A DNA stretch of 64,000 nt, from NCBI RefSeq assembly GCF_006345805.1, contig NC_043007.1, positions 27,218,001-27,282,000 of the forward strand, written 5' to 3'. Positions 7,500-49,635 of the stretch are shown piece after piece; position 1 is the first letter of the stretch; each line of letters begins with the position of its first letter. The notes under the pieces were generated by a model, which made no database searches, was not told the DNA's origin, and saw nothing but the letters and a program-made list of their open reading frames with translations. This DNA is from Octopus sinensis. Lineage: Eukaryota. The translations under genes and the position numbers were made by a program.

Positions 7500-8072
7500 A
7501 ATTCTTTTCTACTTTGGGCGCAAGGCCCGTAATTTTGGTGGGAGGGGATTAAATCGAGCCAGTACACAACTGCTACTTAATTTATCGACTCCGAAAGGAA
7601 GAAAGGCAAAGTTGACTTCGGGGGAATTTGAACTCAGATCATAAAGCATATGCGAAATACTTATTTCTTGACTGCCCACAAGGGGCTAAACACAGAGAGG
7701 ACAAACAAAGACAGACAAATGGATTAGGTCGATTATATCGACCCCAGTGCGTAACTGGTACTTATTTAATCGACACCGAAAAGATGAAAGGCAAAGTTGA
7801 CCTCGGCGCAATTTGAACTCAGAACGTAATTCCAGACGAAATACATATCTCTTTACTACCTACAAGGGGCTAAACACAGAGAAGACAAACAAAGACAGAC
7901 AAATAGATTAGGTCGATTATATCGACCCCAGTGCGTAACTGGTACTTAATTTATTGACCCCGAAAGGATGTAAGGCAAAGTCGACCTCGGCGGAGTTTGA
8001 ACTCAGAACGTAACGGCAGACGAAATACGGCTACGCATTTCGCCCGGCGTGCTAACGATTCTGCCAGCTCGC
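7500..8072 (-). mobile_element. SINE family C, three tandem units
   Basis: Repeated CTGGTACTTAATTTATCGACCCCGAAAGGATGAAAGGCAAAGTCGACC-like core. Confidence 0.85.
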
Positions 8073-21587: not shown

Positions 21588-22095
21588 TTTTCTACACAAA
21601 GACCGAAATTTTTGGGGGAAGAGGACAGTCGATTAGATCGACCACAGTACGCAACTGGTAATTAATTTATCGACCCCGAAAGGATAAAAGCCAAAGTTGA
21701 CCTCGGCGAAATTGGAAGTCAGAACGTAGCGGCAGACGAAATACCTATTTCTTTATTGCCCACAAGGGGCTAAATACAGAGAGGACAAACAAGGAGAGAC
21801 AATCGGATTAAATCGATTTTATCGACCCCAGTGCGTAACTGGTACTTATTTAATCGACCCCGAAAGGATAAAAGCCAAAGTCGACCTCGGCGAAATTGGA
21901 AGTCAGAACGTAGCGGCAGACGAAATACCTAGTTCTTTATTGCCCACAAGGGGCTAAATACAGAGAGGACAAACAAGGAGAGACAATCGGATTAAATCGA
22001 TTTTATCGACCCCAGTGCGTAACTGGTACTTATTTAATCGACCCCGAAAGGATGAAAGGCAAAGTCGACCTCGGCGGAATTTGAACCCAGAACGT
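21588..22095 (-). mobile_element. SINE family C, three tandem units of about 180 bp
   Basis: 21670-21850 is nearly identical to 21852-22035. Confidence 0.88.
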
Positions 22096-40893: not shown

Positions 40894-41386
40894 CGTATGT
40901 ATGTGTATATGTATACATGTTTTTGTATTTTTTGTATACCTATATCTCAATATATGCGTCATTATATTTGTATACATACATACACACACACACATGTCTG
41001 TTTTCTACCGGTTTTATGGACAGTACCAAGCATATATATTTTATATTTTGGATAATAAAAACATATCATAGCTTTGATCTTCAGAAGCGTTACATATTTT
41101 CAGATGTCTACGAGCTGTTTTACAATCCCCCATGGATAAATATTCCAATTCCTCTATCCACGGTGAAGCCGTAAATCGGATATTTCTTTTATATATATAT
41201 ATATTATATATATATATATATATATAATATATATATATTATATATATATCTGTGACACAATCGTTTCATTCACAAATTTGAATTCGGTGATACTAGTTGA
41301 GGATTCTAGCTCGCTCTGATACTGAGTTGAGTTGGTACCTCCTAGTATCTCAAAATTCAATATATAATCATTTATGATTATAGTAT

Positions 41387-41493
41387 TCCACGCTGAAGAG
41401 AAAAGAAGTTTCGGTAAGATAGAATTATTTAATATTTAATATTTTAATTCTTATGCTTTCCTAAAACTTGATTTCGAAACGTACGTCCGTGGA
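41387..41493 (+). ncRNA. Type I hammerhead ribozyme, array copy 1
   Basis: Stem I TCCACG(41387-92)/CGTGGA(41488-93); core CTGAAGA 41393-99; stem II GAAA..AAGTTT..AGAATTA / TAATTCT..AAACTT..TTTC (41400-41475); GAAA 41476-79; stem III C-GTAC-G (palindromic ACGTACGT); triplet GTC, predicted cut after 41487. Confidence 0.92.
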
Positions 41494-41986
41494 TAACTTT
41501 AAAAATGTTTGATAGATTGCGGTAATTCATTCTCTCTTACCTGTTTGTGTCAGCCTTCCAATTGCTGTTTTTACTGAGATCTCCCTTTTTAGTAGAAGAA
41601 ATAGCTATAACCCTTTGACTGCTATTTCTAAATTCGGTATGTGGTAAGGCAATTCGTTGCTGAACCCTTATTGCTTAGTATTACTTAAATTTTCCTCAAA
41701 TGAGGCTTTTACATGCCGAAGACTACTTGGTGTAATTGATAATTATTCCAAATTAATTAATTTCACCCTTCATTATTACGGATAACCATATTTTATCTCA
41801 GTAGATGACCACAGCATCTTGTTTTGGCTACACGCGGGTGGGAAGGGGCTGTTGACACAATCGTTTCATTCACAAATTTGAATTCGGTGATACTAGTTGA
41901 GGATTCTAGCTCGCTCTGATACTGAGTTGAGTTGGTACCTCCTAGTATCTCAAAATTCAATATATAATCATTTATGATTATAGTAT

Positions 41987-42093
41987 TCCACGCTGAAGAG
42001 AAAAGAAGTTTCGGTAAGATAGAATTATTTAATATTTAATATTTTAATTCTTATGCTTTCCTAAAACTTGATTTCGAAACGTACGTCCGTGGA
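41987..42093 (+). ncRNA. Hammerhead ribozyme, array copy 2
   Basis: Same as copy 1; CTGAAGA at 41993, cut after 42087. Confidence 0.92.
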
Positions 42094-42587
42094 TAACTTT
42101 AAAAATGTTTGATAGATTGCGGTTAATTCATTCTCTCTTACCTGTTTGTGTCAGCCTTCCAATTGCTGTTTTTACTGAGATCTCCCTTTTTAGTAGAAGA
42201 AATAGCTATAACCCTTTGACTGCTATTTCTAAATTCGGTATGTGGTAAGGCAATTCGTTGCTGAACCCTTATTGCTTAGTATTACTTAAATTTTCCTCAA
42301 ATGAGGCTTTTACATGCCGAAGACTACTTGGTGTAATTGATAATTATTCCAAATTAATTAATTTCACCCTTCATTATTACGGATAACCATATTTTATCTC
42401 AGTAGATGACCACAGCATCTTGTTTTGGCTACACGCGGGTGGGAAGGGGCTGTTGACACAATCGTTTCATTCACAAATTTGAATTCGGTGATACTAGTTG
42501 AGGATTCTAGCTCGCTCTGATACTGAGTTGAGTTGGTACCTCCTAGTATCTCAAAATTCAATATATAATCATTTATGATTATAGTAT

Positions 42588-42694
42588 TCCACGCTGAAGA
42601 GAAAAGAAGTTTCGGTAAGATAGAATTATTTAATATTTAATATTTTAATTCTTATGCTTTCCTAAAACTTGATTTCGAAACGTACGTCCGTGGA
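42588..42694 (+). ncRNA. Hammerhead ribozyme, array copy 3
   Basis: Same as copy 1; CTGAAGA at 42594, cut after 42688. Confidence 0.92.
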
Positions 42695-43187
42695 TAACTT
42701 TAAAAATGTTTGATAGATTGCGGTTAATTCATTCTCTCTTACCTGTTTGTGTCAGCCTTCCAATTGCTGTTTTTACTGAGATCTCCTTTTTAGTAGAAGA
42801 AATAGCTATAACCCTTTGACTGCTATTTCTAAATTCGGTATGTGGTAAGGCAATTCGTTGCTGAACCCTTATTGCTTAGTATTACTTAAATTTTCCTCAA
42901 ATGAGGCTTTTACATGCCGAAGACTACTTGGTGTAATTGATAATTATTCCAAATTAATTAATTTCACCCTTCATTATTACGGATAACCATATTTTATCTC
43001 AGTAGATGACCACAGCATCTTGTTTTGGCTACACGCGGGTGGGAAGGGGCTGTTGACACAATCGTTTCATTCACAAATTTGAATTCGGTGATACTAGTTG
43101 AGGATTCTAGCTCGCTCTGATACTGAGTTGAGTTGGTACCTCCTAGTATCTCAAAATTCAATATATAATCATTTATGATTATAGTAT

Positions 43188-43294
43188 TCCACGCTGAAGA
43201 GAAAAGAAGTTTCGGTAAGATAGAATTATTTAATATTTAATATTTTAATTCTTATGCTTTCCTAAAACTTGATTTCGAAACGTACGTCCGTGGA
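43188..43294 (+). ncRNA. Hammerhead ribozyme, array copy 4
   Basis: Same as copy 1; CTGAAGA at 43194, cut after 43288. Confidence 0.92.
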
Positions 43295-43786
43295 TAACTT
43301 TAAAAATGTTTGATAGATTGCGGTAATTCATTCTCTCTTACCTGTTTGTGTCAGCCTTCCAATTGCTGTTTTTACTGAGATCTCCCTTTTTAGTAGAAGA
43401 AATAGCTATAACCTTTGACTGCTATTTCTAAATTCGGTATGTGGTAAGGCAATTCGTTGCTGAACCCTTATTGCTTAGTATTACTTAAATTTTCCTCAAA
43501 TGAGGCTTTTACATGCCGAAGACTACTTGGTGTAATTGATAATTATTCCAAATTAATTAATTTCACCCTTCATTATTACGGATAACCATATTTTATCTCA
43601 GTAGATGACCACAGCATCTTGTTTTGGCTACACGCGGGTGGGAAGGGGCTGTTGACACAATCGTTTCATTCACAAATTTGAATTCGGTGATACTAGTTGA
43701 GGATTCTAGCTCGCTCTGATACTGAGTTGAGTTGGTACCTCCTAGTATCTCAAAATTCAATATATAATCATTTATGATTATAGTAT

Positions 43787-43893
43787 TCCACGCTGAAGAG
43801 AAAAGAAGTTTCGGTAAGATAGAATTATTTAATATTTAATATTTTAATTCTTATGCTTTCCTAAAACTTGATTTCGAAACGTACGTCCGTGGA
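43787..43893 (+). ncRNA. Hammerhead ribozyme, array copy 5
   Basis: Same as copy 1; CTGAAGA at 43793, cut after 43887. Confidence 0.92.
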
Positions 43894-44386
43894 TAACTTT
43901 AAAAATGTTTGATAGATTGCGGTTAATTCATTCTCTCTTACCTGTTTGTGTCAGCCTTCCAATTGCTGTTTTTACTGAGATCTCCCTTTTTAGTAGAAGA
44001 AATAGCTATAACCTTTGACTGCTATTTCTAAATTCGGTATGTGGTAAGGCAATTCGTTGCTGAACCCTTATTGCTTAGTATTACTTAAATTTTCCTCAAA
44101 TGAGGCTTTTACATGCCGAAGACTACTTGGTGTAATTGATAATTATTCCAAATTAATTAATTTCACCCTTCATTATTACGGATAACCATATTTTATCTCA
44201 GTAGATGACCACAGCATCTTGTTTTGGCTACACGCGGGTGGGAAGGGGCTGTTGACACAATCGTTTCATTCACAAATTTGAATTCGGTGATACTAGTTGA
44301 GGATTCTAGCTCGCTCTGATACTGAGTTGAGTTGGTACCTCCTAGTATCTCAAAATTCAATATATAATCATTTATGATTATAGTAT

Positions 44387-44493
44387 TCCACGCTGAAGAG
44401 AAAAGAAGTTTCGGTAAGATAGAATTATTTAATATTTAATATTTTAATTCTTATGCTTTCCTAAAACTTGATTTCGAAACGTACGTCCGTGGA
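44387..44493 (+). ncRNA. Hammerhead ribozyme, array copy 6
   Basis: Same as copy 1; CTGAAGA at 44393, cut after 44487. Confidence 0.92.
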
Positions 44494-44986
44494 TAACTTT
44501 AAAAATGTTTGATAGATTGCGGTTAATTCATTCTCTCTTACCTGTTTGTGTCAGCCTTCCAATTGCTGTTTTACTGAGATCTCCCTTTTTAGTAGAAGAA
44601 ATAGCTATAACCCTTTGACTGCTATTTCTAAATTCGGTATGTGGTAAGGCAATTCGTTGCTGAACCCTTATTGCTTAGTATTACTTAAATTTTCCTCAAA
44701 TGAGGCTTTTACATGCCGAAGACTACTTGGTGTAATTGATAATTATTCCAAATTAATTAATTTCACCCTTCATTATTACGGATAACCATATTTTATCTCA
44801 GTAGATGACCACAGCATCTTGTTTTGGCTACACGCGGGTGGGAAGGGGCTGTTGACACAATCGTTTCATTCACAAATTTGAATTCGGTGATACTAGTTGA
44901 GGATTCTAGCTCGCTCTGATACTGAGTTGAGTTGGTACCTCCTAGTATCTCAAAATTCAATATATAATCATTTATGATTATAGTAT

Positions 44987-45093
44987 TCCACGCTGAAGAG
45001 AAAAGAAGTTTCGGTAAGATAGAATTATTTAATATTTAATATTTTAATTCTTATGCTTTCCTAAAACTTGATTTCGAAACGTACGTCCGTGGA
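44987..45093 (+). ncRNA. Hammerhead ribozyme, array copy 7
   Basis: Same as copy 1; CTGAAGA at 44993, cut after 45087. Confidence 0.92.
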
Positions 45094-45586
45094 TAACTTT
45101 AAAAATGTTTGATAGATTGCGGTTAATTCATTCTCTCTTACCTGTTTGTGTCAGCCTTCCAATTGCTGTTTTTACTGAGATCTCCCTTTTTAGTAGAAGA
45201 AATAGCTATAACCTTTGACTGCTATTTCTAAATTCGGTATGTGGTAAGGCAATTCGTTGCTGAACCCTTATTGCTTAGTATTACTTAAATTTTCCTCAAA
45301 TGAGGCTTTTACATGCCGAAGACTACTTGGTGTAATTGATAATTATTCCAAATTAATTAATTTCACCCTTCATTATTACGGATAACCATATTTTATCTCA
45401 GTAGATGACCACAGCATCTTGTTTTGGCTACACGCGGGTGGGAAGGGGCTGTTGACACAATCGTTTCATTCACAAATTTGAATTCGGTGATACTAGTTGA
45501 GGATTCTAGCTCGCTCTGATACTGAGTTGAGTTGGTACCTCCTAGTATCTCAAAATTCAATATATAATCATTTATGATTATAGTAT

Positions 45587-45693
45587 TCCACGCTGAAGAG
45601 AAAAGAAGTTTCGGTAAGATAGAATTATTTAATATTTAATATTTTAATTCTTATGCTTTCCTAAAACTTGATTTCGAAACGTACGTCCGTGGA
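45587..45693 (+). ncRNA. Hammerhead ribozyme, array copy 8
   Basis: Same as copy 1; CTGAAGA at 45593, cut after 45687. Confidence 0.92.
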
Positions 45694-46186
45694 TAACTTT
45701 AAAAATGTTTGATAGATTGCGGTTAATTCATTCTCTCTTACCTGTTTGTGTCAGCCTTCCAATTGCTGTTTTACTGAGATCTCCCTTTTTAGTAGAAGAA
45801 ATAGCTATAACCCTTTGACTGCTATTTCTAAATTCGGTATGTGGTAAGGCAATTCGTTGCTGAACCCTTATTGCTTAGTATTACTTAAATTTTCCTCAAA
45901 TGAGGCTTTTACATGCCGAAGACTACTTGGTGTAATTGATAATTATTCCAAATTAATTAATTTCACCCTTCATTATTACGGATAACCATATTTTATCTCA
46001 GTAGATGACCACAGCATCTTGTTTTGGCTACACGCGGGTGGGAAGGGGCTGTTGACACAATCGTTTCATTCACAAATTTGAATTCGGTGATACTAGTTGA
46101 GGATTCTAGCTCGCTCTGATACTGAGTTGAGTTGGTACCTCCTAGTATCTCAAAATTCAATATATAATCATTTATGATTATAGTAT

Positions 46187-46293
46187 TCCACGCTGAAGAG
46201 AAAAGAAGTTTCGGTAAGATAGAATTATTTAATATTTAATATTTTAATTCTTATGCTTTCCTAAAACTTGATTTCGAAACGTACGTCCGTGGA
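46187..46293 (+). ncRNA. Hammerhead ribozyme, array copy 9 (in the final partial unit)
   Basis: Same as copy 1; CTGAAGA at 46193, cut after 46287. Confidence 0.92.
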
Positions 46294-46604
46294 TAACTTT
46301 AAAAATGTTGATAGATTGCGGTTAATTCATTCTCTCTTACCTGTTTGTGTCAGCCTTCCAATTGCTGTTTTTACTGAGATCTCCCTTTTTAGTAGAAGAA
46401 ATAGCTATAACCCTTTGACTGCTATTTCTAAATTCGGTATGTGGTAAGGCAATTCGTTGCTGAACCCTTATTGCTTAGTATATATATATATATATATTTT
46501 ACTTACATTTAGCCAATGAGTCCGGCTACAGGCCTCGATAACTACTAAATTTTTTTCTAATTTTTCATGATATTATTTTTGTAAATTTTCAATATTCCAC
46601 ATAC

Positions 46605-48746: not shown

Positions 48747-49635
48747 AAATATCTGTTTGAAACGATATTTCCTCAGCAGCCTATTGTAGCCTTTAGACGG
48801 AATAAGATTACAAAAGAATTATTGAGCTCTATATCTGACTACAAGAAAACGAACACTGGAGTCTATATGCTGTACCATAAAGAACAGACGCAAGCGAGGT
48901 AAGCGCTGTTCATTGTGCAACAACATGTGTGAAGTAATTCCATCAGAAATCATAACAGAAATGTGGAACATGTAAAGATTCCACAGAAGGTGGAACATGT
49001 AAAGATTCCCATTTGGTGTATGCTGCAGATTGCACGAAAGACAATTTATGTTGGTTGTACAACAGAACAATTAAACAAAAGTTTTGATGGGCAAAGATTC
49101 GACGTCAGGCACAGTAACAGTAGTTCGACAGAACTTGCTGAACATTTCGTTTCAAGCGGCTGCAATTCTGAAGAAGATTTGAAAGTGCATATTCTTAGGA
49201 AATATTCTGAATCTGCTTCAATTTCTCTTCTTCTCAGAATGTATGAAGAGAAATATGTTTGCGGATTATTAACATCACGCCCTCGAGGAATGAATAAGAG
49301 GACAGGAGAATATCATCAAATTTATACAAAACTGTTTGATTAAATATTCTTCCTTCTCTCTTTTTCTTTCCATTTTTTGTCGTTTTCTTTTTTCTGTGTT
49401 TTTCCTTCTCTCCTGTTATAAAATTGTAACTTAAAAACTGATGATGTAATTCCATCAACGTGTAGACGATGCTTGCTCACGTTCATACTTTACGTTTAAA
49501 TTTCTGTAATTTTGAATTTTTATCACTTCTTATTTTGAACTTGACAGACAGACGTACTGTTGAAATATCGTTTAACTATTAAAATATATAACAATCGAAT
49601 CGCCATCTTCGTCTTGACTGTTTACCTTTGTGAAA
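48747..49635 (+). mobile_element. Penelope-like element 3' fragment: linker, Cys motif, GIY-YIG endonuclease and 3' region (frameshifted)
   Basis: Translates IFPQQPIVAFRRNKITKELL, then C..RCSLC, then ORF 48963-49343 IYVGCTTEQL..LAEHF..DLKVHIL..EEKYV..LTSRPRGMN, typical of PLE GIY-YIG C-termini. Confidence 0.85.

Follow-up and report, generated by a model that had tools for sequence, protein, structure and literature searches.

A predicted full-length type I hammerhead with an extended stem II arm in tandem retrozyme units of Octopus sinensis

Metazoan non-LTR retrozymes have been described in coral, Mytilus, and axolotl (PMC7229834) and in vertebrates (10.64898/2026.07.22.740005). They consist of tandem non-coding units with one type I hammerhead each, are low in GC, and carry a 2-bp stem III with a tetraloop; in most animal retrozyme circles, the self-paired predicted fold leaves the ribozyme free to fold (PMC7229834). 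Unit lengths are 170 to 400 nt in PMC7229834 and 51 to 972 bp in 10.64898/2026.07.22.740005. Metazoan type I hammerheads generally are held to combine a short palindromic helix III with dimer activity and a protected monomer circle (PMC4209133), a view echoed in PMC3088659, PMC6765202, and PMC13725137 and, for cave crickets, in PMC2837043. The axolotl HHR_Amex2 (2 bp plus a tetraloop) cleaves to 22% as a monomer and much better as a dimer, whereas single units of the coral (~0.8/min) and mussel (~0.1/min) retrozymes cleave and circles still accumulate (PMC7229834). PMC7229834 leaves open how these circles avoid self-cleavage despite a freely folding ribozyme. Eight of the nine Xenopus dimers assayed showed no cleavage (10.64898/2026.07.22.740005).

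The minimal hammerheads of Penelope-like elements (PLEs), the subject of work by Lunse et al. that is cited in PMC6765202, are likewise of type I, with palindromic positions around loop III and expected dimer activity (PMC4209133). PLE insertions have been described with inverted arms, with microsatellites as targets, and with a tail at just one end (10.1101/2021.04.23.441226). Among viroids, the CChMVd(-) ribozyme has a long domain II that contains an internal loop 2 and keeps similar rates when shortened (PMC2632901).

The locus analyzed here lies in a 64,000-nt window of the O. sinensis genome, and coordinates refer to that window unless stated otherwise. A retrozyme array of 8.7 tandem units of 599 to 601 nt occupies 41253-46481 on the plus strand. 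Its 5' end is truncated and flanked by a (TA)n microsatellite (41190-41249), and its 3' end, at monomer position 194, is joined to a second (TA)n run that follows 46481. Each 600-nt unit contains one hammerhead. The first is found at 41393-41487, and eight further identical ones, spanning 41993-46287 on the same strand, start at 41993, 42594, 43194, 43793, 44393, 44993, 45593, and 46193; none of 100 shuffled windows contained such a motif, compared with these 9 copies. A search with the unit returned 251 matches with 34 of the 1,286 candidates scored, and the 150 matches listed are 97 to 100% identical and distributed over many contigs. By this definition from sequence, the element would be a young multi-copy non-LTR retrozyme, with a unit of 600 nt as against the 170 to 400 nt of PMC7229834. 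TATCCACGG occurs in the upstream flank (41132-41178) and represents the cut-site strand of the element in reverse complement, probably by chance.

The circular unit, low in GC like those of other animal retrozymes, contains no ATG-started open reading frame of over 30 amino acids. Its fold has a predicted energy of -158 kcal/mol versus -117 kcal/mol for 40 shuffles (z = -7.2) and keeps stems I and II formed with a probability of 0.89 to 1.0, so that no blocking fold would shield the circle. The minus strand folds locally slightly better than the plus strand; a minus-strand ribozyme was rejected because the CTGANGA core is absent from the minus strand of the circular unit. Parts of the unit are present in 20 of 22 sequencing-run rows from four organisms, with no RNA run listed as a holder. 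The four runs that were compared consist of assembled contigs, hence are blind to RNA ends and strand, and reveal only part of the motif variants in other organisms. A single contig (depth 3.8) of one run carries five A>G changes, located in stem I, at N7, and in stem II within 41390-41404, which may reflect either A-to-I editing or a genomic subfamily.

The motif is a type I hammerhead on the plus strand, with the core elements CUGANGA, GAAA, and NUH arranged in a three-way junction that is open at stem I. The catalytic core C3-A9 (CTGAAGA, 41393-41399), in which N7 can be A, T, G, or C among relatives, is followed by the 76-nt stem II (41400-41475) and by the segment 41476-41487, which comprises G12-A13-A14 (GAA, 41476-41478), the palindromic stem III ACGTACGT (41479-41486), and C17 (41487), after which cleavage is predicted. 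This arrangement is exactly the one proposed in the initial annotation, and the stem II helices that it listed (GAAA/TTTC, AAGTTT/AAACTT, and AGAATTA/TAATTCT, with an AT-rich apex) are all recovered in the predicted fold; folded alone, stem II scores z = -2.1. Outside the interval annotated at that time, a 6-bp stem I formed by TCCACG (41387-41392) and CGTGGA (41488-41493) closes the type I junction. The 5' strand of this region (41382-41392) also includes a distal AGT and internal loop 1 (41385-41386), and the 3' strand (41488-41498) an unpaired U1.7 (41494) and a distal ACT.

The 76-nt arm had been regarded as an unusual stem II. It resolves instead into a canonical 4-bp stem II and a purine-rich 2x2 internal loop followed by an extension. 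The 5' strand of the proximal stem (GAAA) and the 5' side of internal loop 2 (AG) lie at 41400-41405, and the 3' side of the loop (GA) and the 3' strand of the stem (TTTC) at 41470-41475. Between them, an interrupted hairpin of 64 nt (41406-41469) extends from loop 2; its length depends on the subfamily and is ~13 nt in a sister family. The same constant design, in which four proximal stem positions are followed by a purine-rich 2x2 internal loop and a hairpin of free length, is seen in 143 distinct motifs from the loci compared, selected only by core, palindrome, and a stem I with 5 or more of its 6 pairs. These motifs form three related families rather than 143 independent events, and 103 of them belong to the young long family. 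In the amplified lineages, stem II measures 24 to 26, 45 to 55, 57 to 63, or 65 to 84 nt. The older subfamilies, with arms of 57 to 63 nt, account for 437 pattern matches and are ~70 to 90% alike, and the young variants among the matches listed have arms of 69, 76, and 83 nt, which differ in steps of 7 nt that fall in the AT-rich apex.

An alignment of 29 related long and mid-length motifs supports this structure, as 96.6% of its cells pair, compared with 18 to 44% for slid structures. Two-sided changes occur at 6 of the 19 named pairs, a number reached by none of 500 shuffles, which do not control for kinship. Stem I contributes two of these pairs and the proximal four pairs of stem II another two; in this proximal stem, positions 10.2 and 10.3 show compensatory changes from A-U to G-C; the invariance of stem III in this set is built in by the construction of the search. 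In the distal extension, only one pair shows a two-sided change and the hairpin is retained, so that part of the arm might be under some selection too.

The bases of the loop-loop contact are conserved in the same set. U1.7 is kept in all 143 motifs, 139 of which leave it without a Watson-Crick partner, and an A immediately 5' of the 4-nt proximal 3' strand is likewise found in 139 of the 143, preceded by either G or A. In solved hammerheads, U1.7 and the 3' A of loop 2 form a reverse Hoogsteen pair between loops 1 and 2 (PMC11875169, PMC2632901). With a 6-bp stem I and a 4-bp stem II, the two bases of the octopus motif are at the canonical distance, but loop 2 is not apical, being an internal 2x2 loop with an extension. 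By analogy, we infer that A41471 pairs with U1.7, with the internal loop replacing the usual apical one, and that the 76-nt arm consists of a canonical stem II and an extension that is tolerated and likely dispensable. CChMVd(-) provides a viroid precedent for such a variant, sharing with the octopus motif the internal loop 2, the elongated domain II, the 5' purine, and the 3' A (PMC2632901). However, it is a type III ribozyme with an apical loop 1, whereas both loops are internal in octopus, a combination that does not occur in the literature passages compared. In the published metazoan retrozymes, loop 2 is apical and carries no 64-nt extension. We found no paper on animal hammerheads with such long arms or on octopus hammerheads, although the supplements of PMC7229834 and PMC4209133 may show motifs with a long helix II; ribozymes go unmentioned in the passages compared from a paper on O. 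vulgaris repeats (PMC13282606).

These features also bear on the earlier comparison with PLE minimal hammerheads, which they do not support. The PLE consensus CUGANGAH-G includes an extra nucleotide before stem II (PMC4209133), whereas in octopus A9 directly precedes G10.1. PLE minimal hammerheads have a stem I of 4 to 5 bp, an ill-defined loop 1, and little or no stem III, as opposed to 6 bp, a conserved internal loop 1, and 2 bp in octopus, where the tertiary-contact bases are kept. Finally, they are located within the pseudo-LTR of elements that encode an RT, and the octopus unit has neither an open reading frame nor a flanking RT frame. Judged from these sequence features, the motif is a full-length hammerhead and not a Penelope minimal one.

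The Rfam Hammerhead_1 model (RF00163) matches 41387-41493 with 21.6 bits (E = 0.0043 when a 201-nt stretch is searched), compared with a gathering score of 34. The alignment covers all 45 model positions; the core and stem I agree with the model, as does the palindromic stem III, but 72 nt of stem II are treated as an insertion. The consensus stem III of RF00163 consists, as in the octopus motif, of two pairs around a palindromic four-base loop. Thus, the 2-bp stem III is indeed self-complementary, as first noted, but its description as unusual was mistaken: in sequence terms, it follows the ordinary animal design and is nothing new by itself. At the gathering score, Rfam reports no hammerhead in the window or in four related loci. 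In E-value mode, it did not find this hammerhead in a 1,301-nt stretch, nor did it find the motif of the short-stem sister family in a 301-nt stretch. The long stem II had been suspected of hiding the motif from standard searches. The score does fall below the threshold, but arm length is not the sole cause, because the sister family with a 25-nt stem is missed as well. A genome-wide search of the 2.72-Gb assembly for the core with a gap of 55 to 85 nt returned 1,826 matches versus 0 for the reversed control pattern. In this one genome, thousands of hammerheads score below Rfam's gathering threshold.

Several related families are present in the same genome. A sister retrozyme has units of 555 to 560 nt and a stem II of 24 to 26 nt (3,612 pattern matches versus 2 for the control). 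It shares monomer positions 132-290 at 67% identity and the same two insertion end sites, but its first stem II pair is U-U or A-A and its stem I includes a C-A mismatch; going by its sequence, it would cut, if at all, after GUU. A pattern search for a short-stem form with G10.1-C11.1 and the same palindrome gave 0 matches. A third, older family combines an ACGCGT stem III (2-nt loop) with a stem II of 45 to 55 nt and the shared priming region. The fourth family, with a period of ~353 nt, has a textbook hammerhead with a 4-bp stem II, a hexaloop ending in A, and a ACTCGAGT palindrome. It is found at positions 148255725-148257169 of contig C1 and at many other places.

The insertion ends of the arrays were mapped in the best BLAST hits and in the first arrays listed on contig C1, with ends cut by the edge of a locus excluded. 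Nearly all array 3' ends (99 of 104) fall at monomer positions 184 to 203 or 272 to 309, and none lies within 10 nt of the cut site. The first site (A, mostly position 194; 41671-41690, plus strand) corresponds to a predicted unpaired loop of the circle and the second (B; 41759-41796, plus strand) to a weak AU-rich hairpin. In nearly all cases printed, the 3' ends are joined to TA repeats. By contrast, 103 array 5' ends are uniformly distributed around the unit (KS p = 0.47). Among 36 two-armed (inverted) insertions, 30 have one A and one B end and 1 has both at A, whereas permutation gives a mean of 15.4 insertions with the same site used twice and none of 100,000 permutations was as low as the observed 1. 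Array flanks consist of (TA)n, so any target-site duplication is unreadable. The 5' truncation, the inverted 5' arm, the microsatellite target, and the extension of one end are all present, as in PLE-mobilized insertions, but the extension measures ~100 bp in the octopus retrozyme as opposed to 30 to 40 bp in PLEs (10.1101/2021.04.23.441226). L1-type twin priming, in which one arm ends where the other was primed, accounts for few of the inversions read. The units of one array differ by 1.7 substitutions and those of different arrays by 9.1. Together with the insertion ends, this similarity is an indirect sign of copying around a circle, which would need cleavage. In four arrays, substitutions are common to only part of the units, which a single template does not explain.

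Folding predictions address the use of the palindrome. A two-unit transcript has a double hammerhead as its free minimum-energy fold (-197.0 kcal/mol versus -184.0 kcal/mol for two single ones), with inter-unit palindrome pairing at a probability of 0.83 to 0.99. The cis stem III costs +1 kcal/mol, compared with -9.8 kcal/mol for the palindrome duplex, and has a probability of about 0.04 in the circular unit; this weakness carries little weight, because folding energies ignore the tertiary contacts of the core. In all seven two-unit transcripts folded, the double form lies 12 to 15 kcal/mol below two single ones, but it is the free minimum in only three, as a lower free fold exists in all three short-family transcripts and in one of two mid-length ones. 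When a growing transcript is folded, the cis stem I is formed with a probability of ~1 over ~500 nt and is swapped when the 5' strand of the next unit appears.

In a search of the sister family that did not constrain the loop, all 100 motifs listed have GTAC as loop III, and the long family shows only 16 scattered first-base variants, mostly G to A. In other families of the genome, it is a different palindrome: GC, TCGA, ATAT, ACGT, or AGCT. Of 100 listed motifs with a non-G loop, a single TCGA family makes up 74; among the remaining 26, 10 are palindromic, compared with ~1.6 expected (counted by eye). The model folds and these loops in several unrelated families bear out the early proposal that the palindrome can pair two adjacent units, a pairing that is available and probably selected. 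The wider proposal that multimers are cut while the monomer circle is protected has already been published for metazoan hammerheads (PMC4209133).

The best reading of these models is dimer-enhanced cleavage, and we consider it likely that each 600-nt unit of the multi-copy retrozyme carries a full-length type I hammerhead with a 4-bp stem II, an internal loop 2, and a probably dispensable extension, which would cut best in multimers as a double hammerhead and would have some activity as a monomer. Stem I would form first in cis. If no cut occurs before the 5' strand of the next unit is made, strand exchange would follow, with the two palindromes joining in an 8-bp helix; the double hammerhead would then cut both ends, leaving the monomer ends paired for ligation. 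A host ligase presumably closes the circle, and a Penelope-type enzyme might prime at TA repeats and copy around it.

Strict dimer dependence, as first proposed, in which a single unit is silent and the circle is thereby protected, is possible, if on balance rather unlikely. It agrees with the energies of the cis stem III and the palindrome duplex, with the persistence of palindromic loops across families (GTAC, GC, TCGA, and the 10 of 26 other listed motifs), with the lack of any blocking fold that would protect the circle (stems I and II formed at P > 0.89), and with the much better cleavage of dimeric HHR_Amex2. However, the 22% cleavage of monomeric Amex2 and the single-unit cleavage and circle accumulation of the coral and mussel retrozymes (PMC7229834) speak against it, as do the tertiary-contact bases kept in the octopus motifs. 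An unlikely elaboration would make the long arm a switch: docking of internal loop 1 with internal loop 2 would weaken or delay the single fold, only the double hammerhead of the nascent multimer would cut, and the circle would stay silent with its ribozyme exposed. If so, the natural series of arms of 25, 50, 60, and 76 to 83 nt on one scaffold would test how circles escape their own ribozyme. Irrespective of the switch, such a length series on a constant core allows direct tests of whether cleavage depends on dimers and of what the arm does.

A fully monomer-active ribozyme with an inherited, unused palindrome is quite improbable: the cis stem I is predicted at P ~1 over some 500 nt before the next unit appears, and invertebrate retrozymes cleave efficiently alone (PMC7229834), but the palindromes, differing from family to family (GTAC, TCGA, GC, ATAT, ACGT, and AGCT), point to selection for self-pairing. 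Least probable is an inactive motif, with the arrays being DNA satellites or derived from uncut read-through RNA, as the sequence and folding evidence from octopus, the uncut Xenopus dimers (10.64898/2026.07.22.740005), and the variants partly shared among units in some arrays would allow. Compensatory changes with an invariant core across subfamilies 70 to 90% alike, a spread across many contigs in which the 3' ends are fixed at (TA)n, and the lower divergence within arrays than between them all argue against it.

No autonomous partner element was found, and none of the 20 PLE loci compared resembles the unit at the DNA level. Two candidates were rejected: the third family that shares the priming region, being another retrozyme, and the PLE fragment in the window at 48933-49343 (plus strand) and 49439-49570, an old family that ends in (TAA)n and has no DNA similarity to either unit. 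This fragment has 150 scored copies in the genome, mostly with (TAA)n ends. We take the frame at 48933-49343 to be a 3' fragment of a GIY-YIG-like PLE endonuclease; a Pfam search of this frame gave no GIY-YIG-like match, and longer copies have a CxxC linker upstream. The 3' region of the fragment contains a hammerhead-like motif, CTGATGA...GAAATATC, with ~115 nt in between and a doubtful stem I. Elsewhere in the window, 184-bp tandem repeats at 7547-8028 and 21629-22095 derive from a dispersed repeat that is presumably SINE-like.
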